A stretch of 26,286 nt of DNA, taken from a virus. Taxonomy: Duplodnaviria; Caudoviricetes. The stretch lies in IMG/VR virus record IMGVR_UViG_3300050195_000084, positions 1 through 26,286 of that record; one strand, given 5' to 3'. The position numbers and the translations under genes are program-made. Shown here in pieces: positions 6,797 through 25,717 of this stretch. How positions within the stretch are numbered: position 1 is the stretch's first letter; each line of letters begins with the position of its first letter. The notes beneath the pieces are model-generated. The model saw only the letters and a program-made list of their open reading frames with translations, was not told the DNA's origin and searched no databases.

Positions 6797-9046
6797 ATGG
6801 CAACGAAGAAGACCCGCAAGCCCGCTGCGACGCAGGAGGGCGACACCTACGCGCCCGGCCTCGACGCTGACGCGCCTGCCGCGGCCAAGGACGTCGCCAA
6901 GGGTGAGAAGGCCGACCACACGGCGATCTTCGAGCGCGCCAAGAAGCGCATCGACGAGTACAAGGAGGTCTGGAGCGAGCAGCACGATCGCATCCGCGAG
7001 GACCTGCGCTTCTCGAACCCGGCCAAGCCCGAGCAGTGGCGCCAGGATGACCTGGCCGGCCGCGGCAAGCGCCCGACGCTGACGCTGGACCGCACGAATC
7101 AGTTCATCGCGCAGGTCTCCAACGACATGCGCCAGAACAACGCCGGCATCGAGGTGATCCCGGCCGATGGCGACGCGGATTCGAAGGTCGCCGAGCAGCT
7201 CGAGAGCATGGTTCGGCACATCGAGTACGTCTCGCGCGCACCGATCGCCTACGACACCGCCGGCGACCTGCAGGTGCGCTGCGGCCTGGGCTGGCTGCGC
7301 GCGGTCCCCGTCGACGGCAAGGACGGCCAGGACATCTGCATCCTGCGCATCACCGACCCGACCTCGTGCGGCATCGATCTGGACTGCCACGAGCCTGACG
7401 GCGCCGGCGCGCGCTGGGGCTACGTTGAGGGCAAGTTGCATCGCTCGACCTTCGAGGAGCGCTATCCGGACGCCGCGGAGGTGCCGCTGGGCACCGAGGG
7501 CTGGCGCGATGGCGAGTACGTCACGATCTGCGAGTACTTCGAGATCGACGACGAGGGCAATCAGGTCTGGATGCACATGACCGGCGCCGAGGTCATCGAG
7601 CCGCCGATCCCGTTCCCGAGCCAGTACCTTGCCCTGGTGCCCGTCGTCGGCTACGAGCTCGAGGTCGACGGCAAGCGCTTCCTGTGCGGGCTGACGCGCC
7701 GCCTGATGGACGGCCAGCGTCTGCACAACTTCGAGATGAGCGCGATCGCCGAGTTCCTGGCCTCGCAGCCCAAGGCGCCGCTGATCGCGCCGGCCGAGTC
7801 GATGGCTGGCTACGAGGCGCACTACAAGCGGCTGGCCAGCGGCAACCCGGCGGTGCTGCCATACCGTGCGTGGGACGAAAAGGGTCGCGCGCTGCCCGCG
7901 CCGCAGCGGGTCATGCCCGCGCCGATGCCCGGCGCCTACGCGCAGATGGCCCAGTTCGCGACCGAGGAGATGCAAGCATCGGTCGGCATGTACAAGGCCA
8001 ACCTCGGCCAGGCCGGCAACGAGACCAGCGGCGTTGCGATCCGCAACCGGCAGATGGAAGGCGACGTCGCCACGCTGCAGTTCCCGGACAACCACGGCAA
8101 GAGCCAAGCGCAGTTGGGGCGCGTGATCGTCGACATGATCCCGCGCATGGCGCTCTCGCGCCGCGTGCAGCGCCTGGTGGCTGCCGATGGCAAGCACAGC
8201 TTCATCACGGTCGACCCGGCCATGAAGAAGCCCACGCGCCGCGGCCAGGACGGCAAGCTGGCCGCGATCAACCCGAAGATCGGCACCTACGACGTCTGCG
8301 TGAAGTCGGGCCCGAGCTACACCACCGCTCGCGAAGAGACCTTCTCGCAGCTGTCCGACATCATCGCCAAGAGCCCAGCGCTCGCGCCCGTGCTGATGCC
8401 GATGTGGGCCAAGCTCAAGGACATGCCGCAGTCCGACATGCTGGTCAAGCTGCTGCTGGCCGTTGCGCCGCCGGCGGTGCAGCAGATCTACGGCGAGGGC
8501 GAAGAGATCCCGCCGCACGTGGCCGCCGAGATGCAGCACCTCAAGCAGCAGCTCGAGCAGATGCAGGGCGCCATGCACCAGGCCGCCGACAAGCTCGAGG
8601 AGCTGCAGGCCGACCACCAGGCCAAGCAGATCGACGCGCTGTCCAAGACCGCCAGCATCCGCGTCGACCAGTACAAGGCCGAGACCGACCGCCTGAGGGT
8701 CATGGGCGCCGGCATGACGCGTGAGCAGGTGCAAGCCATCGTGATGGACCTGATGGGCCAGGTGTTCGCGCAGGGTGCGCCGGACGGCTCGCAGCCTGGT
8801 CAGCCCGGTCCGGACGCCGCGATGCAGCCTCCGATGGGCGGCGATCCGACGGTGGGCCCGGCCGGCCCGCCTGCTGACGACGGCTCGGGCCTGCCCACCG
8901 GCTTCCAGCAGAACGCGCCGCCGGCGCCTCCGCCCGTGGCCGATGTCTCCGGCCTCCCGGACAACCCGCTCGCGCACCAGGCGCCTGACACCTCCAACGA
9001 ACCGCCGAAAGGCGGTTTTTCTTTGCCTGAAGGGGCCGCAACATGA
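6797..9046 (+). CDS. Portal protein, P22 gp1-like
   Basis: Follows terL; 749 aa; EQW...RPTLTLDR, GLTRRLMDGQRLHN, NETSGVAIRNRQMEG, GTYDVCVKSGPSYTTAREE; Gln-rich C-terminal coiled coil. Confidence 0.92.
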   Translation: MATKKTRKPAATQEGDTYAPGLDADAPAAAKDVAKGEKADHTAIFERAKKRIDEYKEVWSEQHDRIREDLRFSNPAKPEQWRQDDLAGRGKRPTLTLDRTNQFIAQVSNDMRQNNAGIEVIPADGDADSKVAEQLESMVRHIEYVSRAPIAYDTAGDLQVRCGLGWLRAVPVDGKDGQDICILRITDPTSCGIDLDCHEPDGAGARWGYVEGKLHRSTFEERYPDAAEVPLGTEGWRDGEYVTICEYFEIDDEGNQVWMHMTGAEVIEPPIPFPSQYLALVPVVGYELEVDGKRFLCGLTRRLMDGQRLHNFEMSAIAEFLASQPKAPLIAPAESMAGYEAHYKRLASGNPAVLPYRAWDEKGRALPAPQRVMPAPMPGAYAQMAQFATEEMQASVGMYKANLGQAGNETSGVAIRNRQMEGDVATLQFPDNHGKSQAQLGRVIVDMIPRMALSRRVQRLVAADGKHSFITVDPAMKKPTRRGQDGKLAAINPKIGTYDVCVKSGPSYTTAREETFSQLSDIIAKSPALAPVLMPMWAKLKDMPQSDMLVKLLLAVAPPAVQQIYGEGEEIPPHVAAEMQHLKQQLEQMQGAMHQAADKLEELQADHQAKQIDALSKTASIRVDQYKAETDRLRVMGAGMTREQVQAIVMDLMGQVFAQGAPDGSQPGQPGPDAAMQPPMGGDPTVGPAGPPADDGSGLPTGFQQNAPPAPPPVADVSGLPDNPLAHQAPDTSNEPPKGGFSLPEGAAT
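9000..9024 (+). terminator. Intrinsic terminator-like hairpin inside the last codons of the portal gene
   Basis: AACCGCC-GAAA-GGCGGTT followed by TTTCTTT; the portal stop is at 9044-9046. Confidence 0.65.
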
Positions 9047-10704
9047 GGCATATCATTCGGCCCGGCGTCAACGCGCCGATCGTCATCCATCCGAAGGAAT
9101 CGGCCACCTTCGACGCGAGCTCGGACGCCATCGGAACGATCGCAATTCCGGGCCAGGGCATTCAACAGGTCATCGCTGCATCGACGTCCTACACCTATGG
9201 CGAGTACTCGTCCAAGCGCGACATCGTCGTCACGTTGACGCAGGGAACCCTGGAATGCCGCGTCGATCAGCAAGGAAAGTCCGGGGGCGCCGGGACTCCC
9301 AGCACTGGCGTCGGGCCGGCGCTGCGCCTGGTGGCCAATCGCGTCAACACGCCGTATTACCTGCTCGCCACCATCAAGCAGGCATTCGGTCGCACGAACC
9401 ACACGATGAGCGATACCGTCTCTTCGCTCATGCTCGTGTACTCGAACTACTACGGCAAGGACGAGACGCCCGGAACCGGTCCCCAGACCTATGGCGCCTC
9501 GATCGAATATCCGGTCGGCACGCTGCTGGCACAGGTCACGTTCAACGGAACGAACTATGGCACCGCGGCGCCCGGCTCCGACGTGTATAGCGATCTGATC
9601 CCCTTGCCGATTCCGATTCCGCAAGGTGCCCGATATCGGGTGCGTACCTTCGTGAGAAACCCGGCGGGCGGTATTCCGATGAATGCCGGGTGTAATTCGT
9701 GGAACGGCGCTGGCGACGAGATTTCCAACTACACCACGGTCGATGGCACCACGCTGGATTACACGATGGGCGCACCGACCGCTGCCTTCACGCTGGTCGA
9801 CAGCCCGCGACCCTCGCTGATCCTCGCCTACACGTCGAAGCGGTCCATCGCCATCGTTGGCGACTCGCGCGCGACGGGGCAGATCAGCGGCACGGCTTCC
9901 GATTACGTCTCCGATGCCAACGGCTGGATCGGGGTAGCGGAGCGTGCGGTCGGCCGGCGCGGCGCATGCGTGAACCTGTCGGCACCGAGTGACCTGCTCG
10001 CGAATTTCATCGGCTCGACCGGCGCCAACCGTCGCAACCTCCTCCAGTACGTCACGGACGTTTTCTGCGAATACGGGATCAATGACCTGTCGCAAGGCTC
10101 CGCGACGATCCTCGCGAATCTCACCACCCTGCGCAACAGCGCCAACGTCACCGGGAAGCCGTTCGGTGTCGCCACGATGTCGCCCTATTCCGCGACCACC
10201 GACAACCTGATGACGCTCGCGAACCAGACGCCGAACGCCAACGATGCCCAGCGCATCGCCGTCAATACGGCGTACCGCAATGGCGCTTCTTGCGCCGACT
10301 ACGTGATCGAGGTCGCGGACTTCTTCGAGTCGTCGCGCAATTCGGGAACGTGGAAGCTGTATTCCAACGCACGCACCGTGGCAGACGGTGCCATGACCGC
10401 AGGTTCGAACATCCTGACCTCTGCGACCGCAGCATTCACGCCGGCTGATACCGGGCACAAGGTCATGGTCCCCGGGGCCGGAACTGCGGGCGCAACGCTC
10501 AAGCAGGTCATGCGGTACATCAGCCCGACAACCGTGGGTCTCTACAACCTGGCGAATGTCTCGGTGCAGAACGCGGTGACGACTGTTTCGGGATCCGCAA
10601 TTCAAATCGGGGCCTTCGACTATTCGATCGATGGCCTTCACGAGGCCGCCCCCGAGTTGCCCGCCTTCCAGATCGCAGTTCAGGTTCCGGCCGCACTGCA
10701 GTAA
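9043..10704 (+). CDS. SGNH/GDSL hydrolase-domain protein, probably virion-associated, inserted between portal and scaffold
   Basis: SGNH blocks IAIVGDSR, NLSAPS, EYGINDL and DGLH; Thr/Gly/Ser-rich beta domains; ATGA coupling to the portal gene. Confidence 0.8.
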   Translation: MRHIIRPGVNAPIVIHPKESATFDASSDAIGTIAIPGQGIQQVIAASTSYTYGEYSSKRDIVVTLTQGTLECRVDQQGKSGGAGTPSTGVGPALRLVANRVNTPYYLLATIKQAFGRTNHTMSDTVSSLMLVYSNYYGKDETPGTGPQTYGASIEYPVGTLLAQVTFNGTNYGTAAPGSDVYSDLIPLPIPIPQGARYRVRTFVRNPAGGIPMNAGCNSWNGAGDEISNYTTVDGTTLDYTMGAPTAAFTLVDSPRPSLILAYTSKRSIAIVGDSRATGQISGTASDYVSDANGWIGVAERAVGRRGACVNLSAPSDLLANFIGSTGANRRNLLQYVTDVFCEYGINDLSQGSATILANLTTLRNSANVTGKPFGVATMSPYSATTDNLMTLANQTPNANDAQRIAVNTAYRNGASCADYVIEVADFFESSRNSGTWKLYSNARTVADGAMTAGSNILTSATAAFTPADTGHKVMVPGAGTAGATLKQVMRYISPTTVGLYNLANVSVQNAVTTVSGSAIQIGAFDYSIDGLHEAAPELPAFQIAVQVPAALQ

Positions 10705-21459: not shown

Positions 21460-23508
21460 ATGTCCTACCAGCTCACGAACGGCCGCTTCCAGGCGTTCGA
21501 CGACAACGGTGATCCGCTCGTCGGCGGCCTACTCTCGACGTACCTGTCGGGAACGACGACGCTCAAGTCGACGTACACCGACGCGACGCTGGCCACGCCC
21601 AACACCAACCCGGTGCAGCTCAACGCGCGCGGTGAGGCGCAGGTCTGGCTCGGCTCCAACGCGTACACGTTCGTCCTCAAGACGGCCGCCGGCGTCACCG
21701 TCTGGTCGATCGATGGCGTCACCGACCCGAAGCTGGACGTCTTCGCGGCGCTGGCTGTCTCCGGCGCCGCTGAGCAGATCGGCTACGGCGCGACGACCGT
21801 CGGCGCAGCGCTGGATGCCCAGGCCGTGTCGATCGCCGCGAACACGAGCGACATCGCAACGCTCAAGTCCATCGATGTCGACGCCATCGCCGACATGATG
21901 ACCAACCTGTCGCTGGGCATGGCGCAGACGATGTACTCGTTCGGCGACTCGCAGGTCTATGGCAATTCGACTGGCGGCGGCGCGCAGGTTGCGCTGCCCG
22001 CGCCGGCCATCGCGCAGAACACGGTCAACACGTTTTTCGGCAATACGGCATTCACCTGCGCGAACTACGGACTGGGCGGCACCACGCTAGCCCAGATGCT
22101 GGCCGGCACCGACGGCAGCGGCTCGACCTTCGAGGCGAAGATCGCCGCCGTCGCAGCCGGCGGTGTAGTGCGGGCCGCGTCCTGCAATCACAGCTGCAAC
22201 GACGCCAAGGTCTACACCGCGGCGAGCGCGGCGACCTATCGGGCCAACCTGGTCTCGTTCATCAACATCTGCCGCAAGTACGGGATCGCGCCGATCCTGA
22301 TCACCTCGCACCCGATCTTGACCACGAGCACCTTCGGCACGATCGCCTGGTCGGAAGCAACGGCCAAGTTCACGCAGATCATGCGCGACACCGCGGCGAA
22401 GCATGGCGTGGTGCTGGTCGACGTCTACAGCCTGCTGCAGCAACTGATCGGCACGGACGGCAACACTGGGGTCTCGGTACTGCCAGACGGCGCGCATGGG
22501 ACGCAGTCGACCTATACCTTTGTCGGGGTGCAGTACACCGCAGCACTCTTCGGCCCCCAGGCGCCGGACGTGACGGGCTCCGAGCAGCGCCTCTCGACCG
22601 TTGGCCCCAATGTGCGCGCGACCAACGCCGTGTACGGGCTCGGCACGTCGTCGCGTGTCGGCGCATCGCTGAACACCGGCAACACCACCGGCCAGACGAT
22701 CCGCGTGATCTTCAACGTGGCTCAGCGCGGGCTCGACCTGTCGCTGCTTGCGCCGATCTTCTCGATCGCGTGCGCAAACGTCACGGTGAGCCTGGACGGC
22801 AGCGCTCTCTCGCCCACGCTCTCGCAGACCATCGCCGGCTTCGGAACCGGCAACTTCTACCAAGACTTCGAGATCCCGCTGGCGCGCAACTTGGCGCTCG
22901 GGCTGCACCACCTGGTCATCACGTCAAACGCTTCGGGCTACCTGGTGATGAACGCGCTGCGCTTCCGCCAGACCAGCAAGCCGCTCTTGCTGCCCAATGG
23001 AGGCGCAGTGCCGTCGCATCGGACGCTGCTGGCGAAGAAGCTGGACCTGACCTCGGTCGCGTCGGTGATGTTCCTGGACGATACGGCTTGCGGCTTGTCA
23101 CGGATGCTCGATGCGGTCACGGAGATCGAGTGGACCGGGCAGATGCTGGTGTCGTCGGGCTTCATCGTCGCCGGCGCCAACATCGGCAGCACCAGCGGCA
23201 CCGCATCGGCAGAACGCGGGATTTCGGTCGGCCTCAACGCCAGCGGCTTCCTGAGCGTCGACGAGGCCACGGCGCCCGGCACCTACACGACGACGGTGAT
23301 CGGCTCTACCAACCTCTCAAGCGCCTCGCACGTGTACCGGGTTTCGACGACGTCGGCCGGCGTGATGTCGCTCTACGTCGATGAGGTGCTGATCGGCACC
23401 TACACGATCACCGGCGCCTACTTCGGCGGATTGATCGGGCTGTACCGCACGCTGGCCAACGGGCTGCTGACGATCACCGATGTCAGCCGCGTCTGGAGGA
23501 ACGTCTGA
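21460..23508 (+). CDS. Tailspike / receptor-binding protein with an SGNH esterase domain
   Basis: N-terminal virion-attachment domain (QAFDDNGDPLVGG...TYTD...NTNPVQLNARGEA...YTFVLK); SGNH blocks FGDSQ, NYGLGG, NHSCND and DGAH; C-terminal beta-sandwich/lectin-like domains. Confidence 0.85.
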   Translation: MSYQLTNGRFQAFDDNGDPLVGGLLSTYLSGTTTLKSTYTDATLATPNTNPVQLNARGEAQVWLGSNAYTFVLKTAAGVTVWSIDGVTDPKLDVFAALAVSGAAEQIGYGATTVGAALDAQAVSIAANTSDIATLKSIDVDAIADMMTNLSLGMAQTMYSFGDSQVYGNSTGGGAQVALPAPAIAQNTVNTFFGNTAFTCANYGLGGTTLAQMLAGTDGSGSTFEAKIAAVAAGGVVRAASCNHSCNDAKVYTAASAATYRANLVSFINICRKYGIAPILITSHPILTTSTFGTIAWSEATAKFTQIMRDTAAKHGVVLVDVYSLLQQLIGTDGNTGVSVLPDGAHGTQSTYTFVGVQYTAALFGPQAPDVTGSEQRLSTVGPNVRATNAVYGLGTSSRVGASLNTGNTTGQTIRVIFNVAQRGLDLSLLAPIFSIACANVTVSLDGSALSPTLSQTIAGFGTGNFYQDFEIPLARNLALGLHHLVITSNASGYLVMNALRFRQTSKPLLLPNGGAVPSHRTLLAKKLDLTSVASVMFLDDTACGLSRMLDAVTEIEWTGQMLVSSGFIVAGANIGSTSGTASAERGISVGLNASGFLSVDEATAPGTYTTTVIGSTNLSSASHVYRVSTTSAGVMSLYVDEVLIGTYTITGAYFGGLIGLYRTLANGLLTITDVSRVWRNV

Positions 23509-23510
23509 CC

Positions 23511-23750
23511 ATGAACTTTGACCAGACCATCGTCAACTGGGCCTTCGGGTTGGTTGGCACGCTCGGCGGCTTCGTGGTGAAGGCGATGTGGGATGCGATC
23601 GCCCAACTACGCAGTGACCTGGCCGACCTCAACCGCGCGATCGCGCGCGACTACGTGCGCCGCGACGACTACCGCGACGACATCAGCGAGATCAAGGGGA
23701 TGCTGGCCCGCATCTTCGACAAGCTCGACGAGAAGGCCGACAAGCCGTGA
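23511..23750 (+). CDS. Putative holin/antiholin-like protein (one TM plus coiled coil)
   Basis: GGAGG RBS; N-terminal TM (IVNWAFGLVGTLGGFVV) and charged coil (DYVRRDDY...IFDKLDEKADK); first gene of the lysis region. Confidence 0.6.
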   Translation: MNFDQTIVNWAFGLVGTLGGFVVKAMWDAIAQLRSDLADLNRAIARDYVRRDDYRDDISEIKGMLARIFDKLDEKADKP

Positions 23751-24088
23751 GCGCCGATCGCGAAGTCCTGGAACTGGAGTGCCAGCTGCGCCTGATCGAG
23801 CACATCGATGCGAACCCGCCGCCAGAAGAGCCGATGGATCTGTGGATCGACGGCTTCTGGGCCGCGGTCGCGGCGCTGCGCAACCCGCGCGCGCCCGCCG
23901 ACGTGCTGATGGCAATCGAGATGCGTCGATCCGTCCACCGCCACCAACAGGAGGAGCGCCATGCGCAGCACCGATCCCGACCCGCAGCCGTTCAAGCCCC
24001 TGGGAGAACGGGCAACCAGGCAGCCGACGACCTCACCGCCTACCTCACCGAAGCCTACGGGCCCCAGCGGGATCGTCGTCGGACCTGA
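23747..24088 (+). CDS. Hypothetical protein
   Basis: GTGA overlap with the upstream stop. The C-terminal 128 nt overlap another plausible ORF. Confidence 0.45.
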   Translation: MSADREVLELECQLRLIEHIDANPPPEEPMDLWIDGFWAAVAALRNPRAPADVLMAIEMRRSVHRHQQEERHAQHRSRPAAVQAPGRTGNQAADDLTAYLTEAYGPQRDRRRT

Positions 24089-24116
24089 CGGCCGCATGAA
24101 GACGACCACGCACTAG
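23961..24116 (+). CDS. Hypothetical 51-aa Pro/Thr-rich protein (not in the ORF track)
   Basis: Strong AGGAGGAG RBS before ATG 23961; MRSTDPDPQPFKPLGERATRQPTTSPPTSPKPTGPSGIVVGPDGRMKTTTH*; ends 11 nt before the lysin. Confidence 0.5.
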   Translation: MRSTDPDPQPFKPLGERATRQPTTSPPTSPKPTGPSGIVVGPDGRMKTTTH

Positions 24117-24127
24117 AAGGTGAAACC

Positions 24128-24532
24128 ATGAAACTGAAGCTCTCTCGCACCTGGCCGTCTGCCGGTTGCACCATCGGGCAACTGTCGGTCGACAGCATGC
24201 CGCAGTGCTACACCCTCGAGGACGTCGTGCGCCCCGCCGGCGCGCCGAAGGTGTTCGGCCAGACGGCGATTCCCGCCGGCGTCTACGGCGTGGTGATCAC
24301 CTTCTCGCCGCACTTCCAGCGCGATCTCCCGCTGCTGGTGAACGTGCCCGGCTTCGAAGGCGTGCGCATCCACCCGGGCAACACCGCGGCCGACACCGAA
24401 GGTTGCATCCTGGTGGGCGTCGACCGCGCGTCCGATTCGATCGGTCGCAGCCGCGTCGCTTTCGACGCACTGTTCCCGAAGATCCAGCAGGCGCTCGCGC
24501 GCGGCGATCTGGTGAGCATCGAGGTCGCGTGA
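24128..24532 (+). CDS. DUF5675-family putative endolysin (L,D-transpeptidase-like His/Cys motif)
   Basis: TIGQL...CYTLED...TAIPAGVY...SPHFQRDLPLLVNVPGFEGVRIHPGNTAADTEGCILVG; flanked by holin-like genes. Confidence 0.85.
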   Translation: MKLKLSRTWPSAGCTIGQLSVDSMPQCYTLEDVVRPAGAPKVFGQTAIPAGVYGVVITFSPHFQRDLPLLVNVPGFEGVRIHPGNTAADTEGCILVGVDRASDSIGRSRVAFDALFPKIQQALARGDLVSIEVA

Positions 24533-24768
24533 TGCTGCTGCAGCTCATCCCCAACTGGCGCAAGGCGCACCGCATGCTGTCCAACCAGATGGTCGTCATC
24601 GACGGCGCACTGCTGGTGGGCTGGACGCAAATCCCCCCCGAGCTGAAATCGGCCATCCCGGCCGGGTATCTCGCGATCGCCGCCGCCGTGTGGCTGGCGC
24701 TGAAGGTGGCCGCGCGCCTGATCGACCAGGGCAGCGCCACCGCGGCGCCCGAGGAGCCGAAATCATGA
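24532..24768 (+). CDS. Putative holin (two TM)
   Basis: LIPNWRKAHRMLSNQ N-terminus, two hydrophobic segments, ARLIDQ C-terminus; tandem GTG(24529)-ATG(24532) starts overlapping the lysin stop. Confidence 0.75.
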   Translation: MLLQLIPNWRKAHRMLSNQMVVIDGALLVGWTQIPPELKSAIPAGYLAIAAAVWLALKVAARLIDQGSATAAPEEPKS

Positions 24769-25313
24769 TCAGCCTCTCCCTGCGTTCCAAGATCGAGCTG
24801 GGGGTGGCCGCACTGCTCGTCGCCGCGGCATTGCTGGTGTGGGCGCTGTGGCCCGCGAAGACGGCCCCCGAGATCACCAGCGCTGCGCCGGAGGTGACGC
24901 AGGCGGACGGCTCGAAGATCGCGGCGCGCGACCCCACCGCCGCCTCGGCGCCCGCGCCGCACATCATCCCGGCCGGCTACCACGAGGTGCGCCGCGCGCA
25001 GGTCGTCGTCGCGCCGGCGTCGGCTGCTAGCAGCGTCGAGGTGGACCTGTCCCTGGTTAGCGACGGCACCCAGCAGCGCGTCGTCGCGAGCTCGCCAGAC
25101 GGCCAGGTGATAAAGGCCCTGGACATCCCCATTCAGGCCGTGCAGATGCCGCCGCCGGCCAGGCCGTGGGCCGCAGGCCTGTCCTACGGCACGAACCGCG
25201 GCATCGGCATCTGGGTCGATCGTGACGTCGGGCGCCTGGTGTTGGGCGCCACGGTGCAGCGCCTGCAGGACGGTCGCTCCGAGGCCCAGCTGCGCATTGG
25301 CGTGAGGTTCTGA
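24765..25313 (+). CDS. Putative non-canonical spanin: N-terminal membrane anchor plus C-terminal four amphipathic beta-strands ending in Phe
   Basis: ATG 24765 (ATGA overlap); TM LGVAALLVAAALLVWALW; no Cys, so no lipobox; C-terminus WAAGLSYG / GIGIWVDRD / LVLGATVQ / EAQLRIGVRF; occupies the Rz position. Confidence 0.65.
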   Translation: MISLSLRSKIELGVAALLVAAALLVWALWPAKTAPEITSAAPEVTQADGSKIAARDPTAASAPAPHIIPAGYHEVRRAQVVVAPASAASSVEVDLSLVSDGTQQRVVASSPDGQVIKALDIPIQAVQMPPPARPWAAGLSYGTNRGIGIWVDRDVGRLVLGATVQRLQDGRSEAQLRIGVRF

Positions 25314-25320
25314 TCATGCC

Positions 25321-25490
25321 GGCGCATCTGGTGCGCCAGGCTGTCTAAAACTCGAGAATCGCGCCGGAATTTACCGGGGGAGCAGAGAAGTTTCCGGTAT
25401 GGAAAGTATTAGACATCTGGAGCAGAGTTTCTCTGTCGGATCAATTACTTAGGCGCGATTAAGTAGATAGTGCTGCATCATGGGCGTGTG
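25321..25490. other. Prophage attachment junction (phage arm plus core inside mutS)
   Basis: AT-richer non-coding segment with inverted TGTCTAA (25342-25348) / TTAGACA (25409-25415), direct GGAGCAGAG (25379, 25419), IHF-like gATCAAttacTTA (25439-25451), and TACTTA-8nt-TAAGTA (25446-25465), abutting the mutS HTPMMQ codons. Confidence 0.7.
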
Positions 25491-25544
25491 ACCGCTCAGG
25501 TCGACGGGCGCGTTCGGGGTGTCCACGGGGTGTTCGGTTGGCAT
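25449..25544 (-). pseudogene. mutS: 5' remnant of DNA mismatch repair gene mutS, cut by prophage integration
   Basis: Minus-strand translation from ATG 25544: MPTEHPVDTPNAPVDLSGHTPMMQHYLLNRA*. HTPMMQxYL is the conserved MutS N-terminal motif. Codons switch from GC-rich to AT-rich right after MMQ. Confidence 0.85.
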
Positions 25545-25717
25545 CGACGAAGAGGTCTTGGAAGGGCGCGCGGGCCGCGCGAGCGTCGGCGGCGAGGCGC
25601 GGATTATCTCGCGCGCTGCGGCCGCCGCTCCCGTGTCAAAGAGCTATCGACGCGGGCGGCATCCGCCCGTGCGGCGCGGGCCGAACGAGCCCGCGCCGTG
25701 GATCGCGTTGCGGACGA

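Follow-up and report, generated by a model that had tools for sequence, protein, structure and literature searches.

Unimolecular spanins of the T1 type carry an N-terminal lipobox and a C-terminal transmembrane helix, and T1 gp11 has been proposed to fuse the inner and outer membranes (available text of PMC6139136). The last gene of the prophage analysed here, hereafter the target, resembles gp11 in being a single gene after the endolysin and in encoding one transmembrane helix and a beta-rich periplasmic part in a protein that would link both membranes. However, its layout is inverted: the helix is N-terminal, a predicted four-strand outer-membrane anchor stands at the C-terminus, and a lipobox Cys is lacking. 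Most target homologues possess a periplasmic Cys, whereas PMC6139136 found none in 58 u-spanins, and a profile comparison between the target and T1 gp11 was not significant (hhalign probability 0.2%). With lambda Rz/Rz1 and P2 LysB/LysC, the target shares the gene position, an i-spanin-like N-terminal helix and a periplasmic Cys that is common in the family, but it lacks a coiled coil, an o-spanin lipoprotein and any PHROG spanin match. Trimeric autotransporters (AtaA, 9vnj; Hia, 2gr8/3emo) likewise have four C-terminal strands per chain and a terminal aromatic residue; unlike them, the target has no sequence match, passenger or coiled-coil linker, and its N-terminus looks uncleaved. When its C-terminal strands are superposed on the AtaA/Hia anchors, 50 residues align at 2.0 A with Z scores of 5.1-5.8, tied with gasdermins and methyltransferases, so the overlay shows a common sheet only. 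The target does not have the features that define u-spanins, i-spanins or trimeric autotransporters; most plausibly, it acts like a u-spanin turned round.

According to the available text of PMC6139136, 13% of phage genomes have no known spanin. The means by which spanin-less phages breach the outer membrane is explicitly treated as an open question, still so in PMC12819732, which in its available portion names only spanins and disruptins. The disruptin phiKT gp28 described there is likewise concerned with outer-membrane disruption in spanin-less phages, but it is a short cationic amphipathic helix, whereas the target is a predicted two-anchor protein of 182 residues. The word 'barrel' is absent from the available portions of both papers, and no published description of a barrel-anchored spanin was found in the literature searched, outside which most subscription journals lie. 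A crAss-like spanin is mentioned in 10.1101/2021.08.26.457843, the available part of which does not give its architecture. Spanin searches key on the lipobox, and a barrel-anchored form would therefore be invisible to them.

Target gene and its predicted protein

The window, that is, the whole stretch of DNA analysed (26,286 bases), is a viral record with terminase and tail genes and with genes for a P22-like portal and coat; it does not include the left part of the prophage. The 3' end of its late operon comprises, in order, the 23511-23750 membrane-protein gene, a DUF5675 gene, a phrog_1356 holin gene and the target (Table 1). Contigs of two other runs (X10, record 2, and X17, record 18; not marked as source) span the whole target gene with zero differences within it and stop at 25493; host-side contigs start at 25471, and the depth steps up there. 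These contig breaks and the depth step mark 25471-25493 as the probable attR core, which makes the target the last prophage gene. The core falls in a short minus-strand frame (25449-25544) reading HTPMMQHY, which we take to be the start of mutS; the 31-aa piece has no Pfam match, and a gene for a suhB-type inositol monophosphatase is present upstream. The integration site may be the 5' end of mutS. One RNA run gave just two 151-base pieces, and expression is not evidenced. The prophage also encodes two GDSL/SGNH esterase-like proteins (9043-10704 and 21460-23508), one after the portal and one tail-associated.

Table 1. Features at the 3' end of the late operon and the right prophage end
Feature	Positions	Strand	Basis or remark
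79-aa protein, hydrophobic N-terminal segment and charged tail, no Cys	23511..23750	+	phrog_462, E 7e-13
Small conserved ORF, 51 aa, precedes endolysin	23961..24116	+	similar ORFs in L001, L003, L081
DUF5675 protein, candidate endolysin (peptidase-like)	24128..24532	+	PF18925, E 1.7e-31
Holin, DUF7940, phrog_1356; translationally coupled to target	24532..24768	+	family match
Target: candidate barrel-anchored unimolecular spanin, 182 aa	24765..25313	+	final gene of prophage late operon
Hydrophobic helix (residues 12-29) preceded by a basic stretch; predicted to remain uncleaved as an N-in anchor in the inner membrane	24798..24851	+	AF2 and family statistics
Predicted periplasmic part, residues 30-134	24852..25166	+	AF2 and family alignment
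Four amphipathic strands, residues 135-182, predicted outer-membrane segment	25167..25310	+	AF2 and family conservation
Probable attR core, right prophage end	25471..25493	.	contig breaks and depth step

The target reading frame is free of Cys codons, ends in EAQLRIGVRF and starts at an ATG that overlaps the stop codon of the upstream holin gene (ATGA). A GTG start further upstream, at 24690, was dropped, the coupled ATG at 24765 being preferred. AF2 models from two alignments (pLDDT 89.3 and 91.2) placed a helix at residues 6-28 and four C-terminal strands at residues 135-141, 147-155, 158-166 and 172-180 (nucleotides 25167-25310), with further strands at residues 76-122. The reading frame and the models confirm the layout given in a preliminary description of this DNA, namely a helix, a middle region and four amphipathic strands running to a terminal Phe. 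That description had taken the middle for a Pro/Ala/Val-rich stretch. Pro-rich stretches are indeed present, but a plain linker is refuted by a conserved four-strand domain: residues 30-134 are predicted to form, in order, a Pro-rich extended segment, a QxDGS hairpin, the four-strand domain (residues 76-122) and a Pro-rich linker, and this middle domain has invariant residues and strictly alternating strands. In the C-terminal strands, Gly138, Gly148, Gly161 and Gly179 are conserved and Phe is the last residue. Each strand has a hydrophobic face opposite a face with the conserved Gly and charged residues, and aromatic residues lie at both rims. Neither AF2 model has a helix after residue 28 that could form a coiled coil. 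The target gave no sequence match in Pfam, PHROG, NCBIfam or PDB; Foldseek retrieved nothing from the PDB within an E-value limit of 0.001, in structure searches that barely covered the periplasmic domain.

The family to which the target belongs is unnamed and yielded 103 matches from the single sequence, 358 from a profile and 721 clusters at 50% identity; none of 50,697 records of isolated phages matched three family members. One homologue of 305 aa (P0102) is joined to part of a PF02547 protein; this fusion may reflect a prophage junction or an assembly artefact. The reported lack of Cys holds for the window protein but not for the family, in which one or more Cys follow the helix in 162/219 homologues, usually as part of a CPP motif absent from the window copy. 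The stretch from the helix to the first strand spans 100-147 residues (median 110; 211 homologues), which by a rough estimate is long enough to cross the periplasm. At the C-terminus, Phe or Trp is the last residue in 223/225 homologues, positions -3, -5 and -7 are hydrophobic in 100%, 100% and 98% of homologues, and Gly occupies -4 in 218 members (63/69 in an aligned subset). Of the 150 top-ranked representatives, 144 have Phe or Trp as the last residue and 105 show the full pattern; the corresponding counts for 395 neighbouring genes in these loci are 14 and 1. The C-terminal Phe or Trp with its alternating hydrophobic pattern exceeds chance, and the alternation first noticed before the terminal Phe of the window protein is conserved across the family and rare in neighbouring genes. 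The strict beta-signal, given as GXX-aromatic-X-aromatic in the available part of PMC13067283, was found in 0/69 members, with an aromatic residue at -3 in 29/69.

Across 219 members, the N-terminus contains an uncharged run with a median length of 20, preceded by Lys or Arg in 212, capped by an aromatic residue in 202 and followed by Pro in 207. Cleavage-type sites are in slight excess over shuffles (strict, 50 versus 37.9 of 219; loose, 110 versus 97.7) and stand at no fixed place; no cleavage site is conserved across these members. Lipobox-like text within the helix occurs in only 12/219 homologues and is not conserved. By this pattern test, the N-terminus appears more anchor-like than signal-like, in line with the inner-membrane anchor proposed at the outset, and an uncleaved inner-membrane anchor is the favoured reading of the helix.

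Lysis neighbourhood and canonical spanins

We retrieved 95 loci, of which 80 are viral (from a total of 95 confirmed viral loci) and 15 come from genomes; the latter all belong to Beta- or Gammaproteobacteria, unclassified Proteobacteria or Armatimonadia, lineages that presumably all possess an outer membrane. A complete ORF is present in 92 loci, which together with the window form 55 groups at 80% identity, two of them without upstream sequence. Omitted rows are L002, L067 and L088 (no complete ORF), L023 and L039 (no upstream flank), and P0065, P0102, P0103 and P0104. A lysin lies upstream of the target in 52/52 independent non-window groups with flank, more than 2 kb away in two of them. 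The lysins comprise 45 PHROG endolysins or amidases from nine PHROG families, four DUF5675 proteins and three Tlde1-domain proteins, the last two types being candidate endolysins. Given partners from at least ten families, the target gene seems to track lysis rather than one enzyme or virion type. The available part of a 2026 preprint (10.64898/2026.04.11.717860) presents DUF5675 as a C82-like candidate lysin; from this and the endolysin position that DUF5675 proteins occupy in the four further loci, we infer that the DUF5675 protein is the endolysin of the window. Tlde1-domain proteins stand at the endolysin position at L037:3275-3655, L041:3192-3587 and L078:3039-3437, which suggests that they serve as phage lysins.

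A bare holin-endolysin-target cassette is found in 13/52 loci, and in 42/53 the target begins within or directly at the stop codon of the preceding gene. In a P2-like prophage (L006), the gene order is gpL-gpX-holin-endolysin-target-gpR-gpS; P2 has lysA-lysB-lysC at the corresponding place, and the target there takes the lysB/lysC position. In L085, L089 and L091, the target lies between the endolysin and the terminase small subunit. Because the target pairs with many ordinary endolysins and holins, the novelty is confined to one gene, and the earlier idea of an undescribed lysis system as a whole does not survive. Of the two genes formerly called holin-like, 24532-24768 does encode a phrog_1356 holin, but 23511-23750 matches phrog_462, which is no holin family; its product had no spanin-family match and is possibly holin-like, an antiholin or a partner of the target. 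Outer-membrane morons occur near lysis genes, and the target could in principle be a Lom/Bor-like lysogen envelope protein or a virion protein with the lysis genes as mere neighbours, a reading also in keeping with the 'structural' annotation of a Cellulophaga look-alike. We consider it highly improbable, given the shared strand and the translational coupling in 42/53 loci, the lack of a sigma-70-like promoter at 23300-25700, the presence of the target with P22-like, P2-like and lambda-like gene sets, the four strands only, and the phages that would be left without a detectable spanin.

A small Pro-rich ORF recurs right before unrelated endolysins (window 23961-24116, L001:3090-3254, L003:3062-3241 and L081:3369-3563); the 51-aa window copy has no match in PHROG or Pfam. 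At L018:761-2419 and in L055-L059, a reverse-transcriptase-like gene and an Avd-like neighbour adjoin the lysis genes, a pair that, judged from the translations, we take to suggest a diversity-generating retroelement.

In the 1.1 kb that follow the endolysin, a lipobox ORF was detected in 3/53 test loci, against an antisense background of 3/53 and 13/16 controls. The control hits comprise 6/6 reference phages (three used for tuning; T7 anchored on gene 18) and 7/10 fresh phages picked for a related lysozyme, with one hit that looks spurious. The detector missed RS-PII-1, a phage with an Rz-like gene, so its sensitivity is incomplete. Only the final version was relied on: the earliest scan had no positive control, and two earlier versions each found 1/3 known o-spanins, so their whole-genome lists were left unused. 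BPP-1, fetched as a positive control, was dropped because it stands in the spanin-less table in the available part of PMC6139136 itself; a matched control from viral contigs yielded just L006 relatives, and isolated phages were used instead. In comparison with spanin families, 0/39 candidate membrane or lipoprotein genes from the window and seven relatives (90-100% complete) matched, as against 8/9 control proteins. A scan of 235 neighbouring proteins returned two weak secondary Rz-like hits (2e-4 and 4e-4). No lipobox ORF was found after the window's endolysin, as the preliminary description had stated. Its proposal that homologues should accompany lysins and exclude Rz/Rz1 was likewise borne out by the lysins in 52/52 groups and, within reach of the two detectors, by the exclusion of Rz/Rz1 and u-spanins from the target loci.

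In L051, L070 and L095 (1835-2110), a 90-aa phrog_27783 protein is encoded ahead of the lysis cassette. The L051 and L070 copies carry a lipobox and the L095 copy weakly matches a metallopeptidase; the protein looks unlike an o-spanin. Pseudomonas phage Shamal (L138:2223-2369) has just a 48-aa gene between endolysin and terminase, and no convincing spanin was seen there.

The target might also be the outer half of a two-component spanin, with its helix cleaved or ignored, a barrel replacing the o-spanin lipid, and a nearby helix-plus-coiled-coil protein (e.g., the product of 23511-23750) as the i-spanin. Croceibacter phage P2559S has such a layout, and two loci have weakly Rz-like upstream genes. 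This arrangement is nevertheless quite improbable for the target, since 13/52 cassettes consist of holin, endolysin and target alone, no partner family is common to the loci, and the helix is anchor-like, with n-regions of at least 25 residues in 33/219 homologues.

A putative bridge between two membranes

The position in the lysis cluster without the usual spanins, combined with the predicted helix and strands, makes the target a likely new lipoprotein-free spanin. It is probably an inverted unimolecular spanin that combines an inner-membrane helix with an oligomeric outer-membrane barrel. Initially, Sec would export the C-terminal part, leaving the N-terminal helix in the inner membrane. The periplasmic segment of 100-147 residues would let the tethered strands reach the outer membrane, which the four C-terminal strands would enter, likely via BAM. 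Four strands alone cannot close a barrel, so an oligomer is expected: several copies would complete the barrel, and three would make 12 strands as in trimeric autotransporters. A homotrimer prediction (residues 29-182, alignment A2) scored 0.14 against a mark of 0.42, which bears neither way. Peptidoglycan would keep the bridges apart until holin and endolysin strip it. Finally, the freed bridges would cluster, the beta domains collapse and the two membranes fuse, as proposed for T1 gp11 in the available text of PMC6139136.

The main caution comes from LamB: according to the available part of PMC4817254, a mutant tethered to the inner membrane fails to reach an assembled state in the outer membrane and probably folds into the inner one; this behaviour counts against a two-anchor model. 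The conserved spacer of at least 100 residues may spare the target that fate. Tethered LamB is also reported there to be toxic by mis-insertion, which lends some weight to a target that replaces spanins without fusion, by an outer-membrane pore or tear, by BAM jamming, or by folding into the inner membrane as a lysis accessory. All the genomic evidence is compatible with such a disruption, and the conserved Gly and charges on the inward strand faces could line a pore. It seems unlikely, however, because the three-gene cassettes already include a holin, a periplasmic part that always spans at least 100 residues points to a bridge whose length is fixed, and a pore of 8-16 strands would presumably be too small for virion release. 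If the inverted spanin proves true, it would add a small fusogen to those known and show in nature that BAM can insert a substrate whose other end remains in the inner membrane. The target family offers a single-gene candidate suited to the standard lambda Rz/Rz1 assay, and its genes are obtainable from cultured lysogens; homologues occur in lysogens of Chitinimonas, Chitiniphilus, Jeongeupia and Solimonas.

Look-alikes in Bacteroidota phages

Hits from a library of viral structures were R9ZZB8 (238 aa, Cellulophaga phi17:2), W8CQR3 (207 aa) and a DUF6808 protein, the first two being tied to phi17:2 gp059 and P2559Y_0023, respectively, by length and record only. Cellulophaga phi17:2 gp059 (238 aa), annotated 'structural protein', follows an amidase gene and combines a helix with C-terminal strands whose last residue is Phe; its comparison with the target family profile was not significant. 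Croceibacter P2559Y_0023 (207 aa) also follows an amidase gene and has a hydrophobic N-terminus and C-terminal strands, but it differs from the target in a possible lipobox Cys and the lack of a terminal aromatic residue. DUF6808 (PF20647) reached a feature score of 0.90 and is structurally similar to the target; 0/86 target-family members matched the PF20647 model at E 0.05, so the likeness is at the feature level only. No sequence homology of the Bacteroidota look-alikes to the target family was detectable. A genome-wide scan for the architecture pattern was too strict, missing even gp059, and was uninformative.

Both P2559Y and P2559S stand in the 2018 spanin-less table in the available part of PMC6139136. 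In P2559S (L146:27300-28065), the amidase gene is followed by a helix-plus-coiled-coil gene, which is overlapped by a 185-aa frame (27508-28065) that is annotated only from 27826 (last 79 residues). The frame has a signal-like start, a charged helical middle and C-terminal strands with Trp as the final residue. The pair has a layout like that of Rz/Rz1 but without a lipoprotein, and is possibly a two-component spanin in which a barrel replaces the lipid anchor. We propose, at what we regard as even chances, a third spanin class in phages of Proteobacteria and Bacteroidota, in which a BAM-inserted oligomeric barrel would replace the lipid anchor, so that one polypeptide would be integral in both membranes and fuse them. 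It would exist in a one-piece form (the target family) and a two-piece form (P2559S-like), and would explain part of the 13% of spanin-less phages.

Bacteroides phage B124-14 (L145:6765-7370), also listed as spanin-less, encodes a DUF6549 protein after an M15 endolysin, with an N-terminal helix, a coiled coil and a beta-rich tail. Given the coiled coil and the lack of a terminal aromatic residue, it was ruled out as an instance of the same pattern and stands as a separate candidate.
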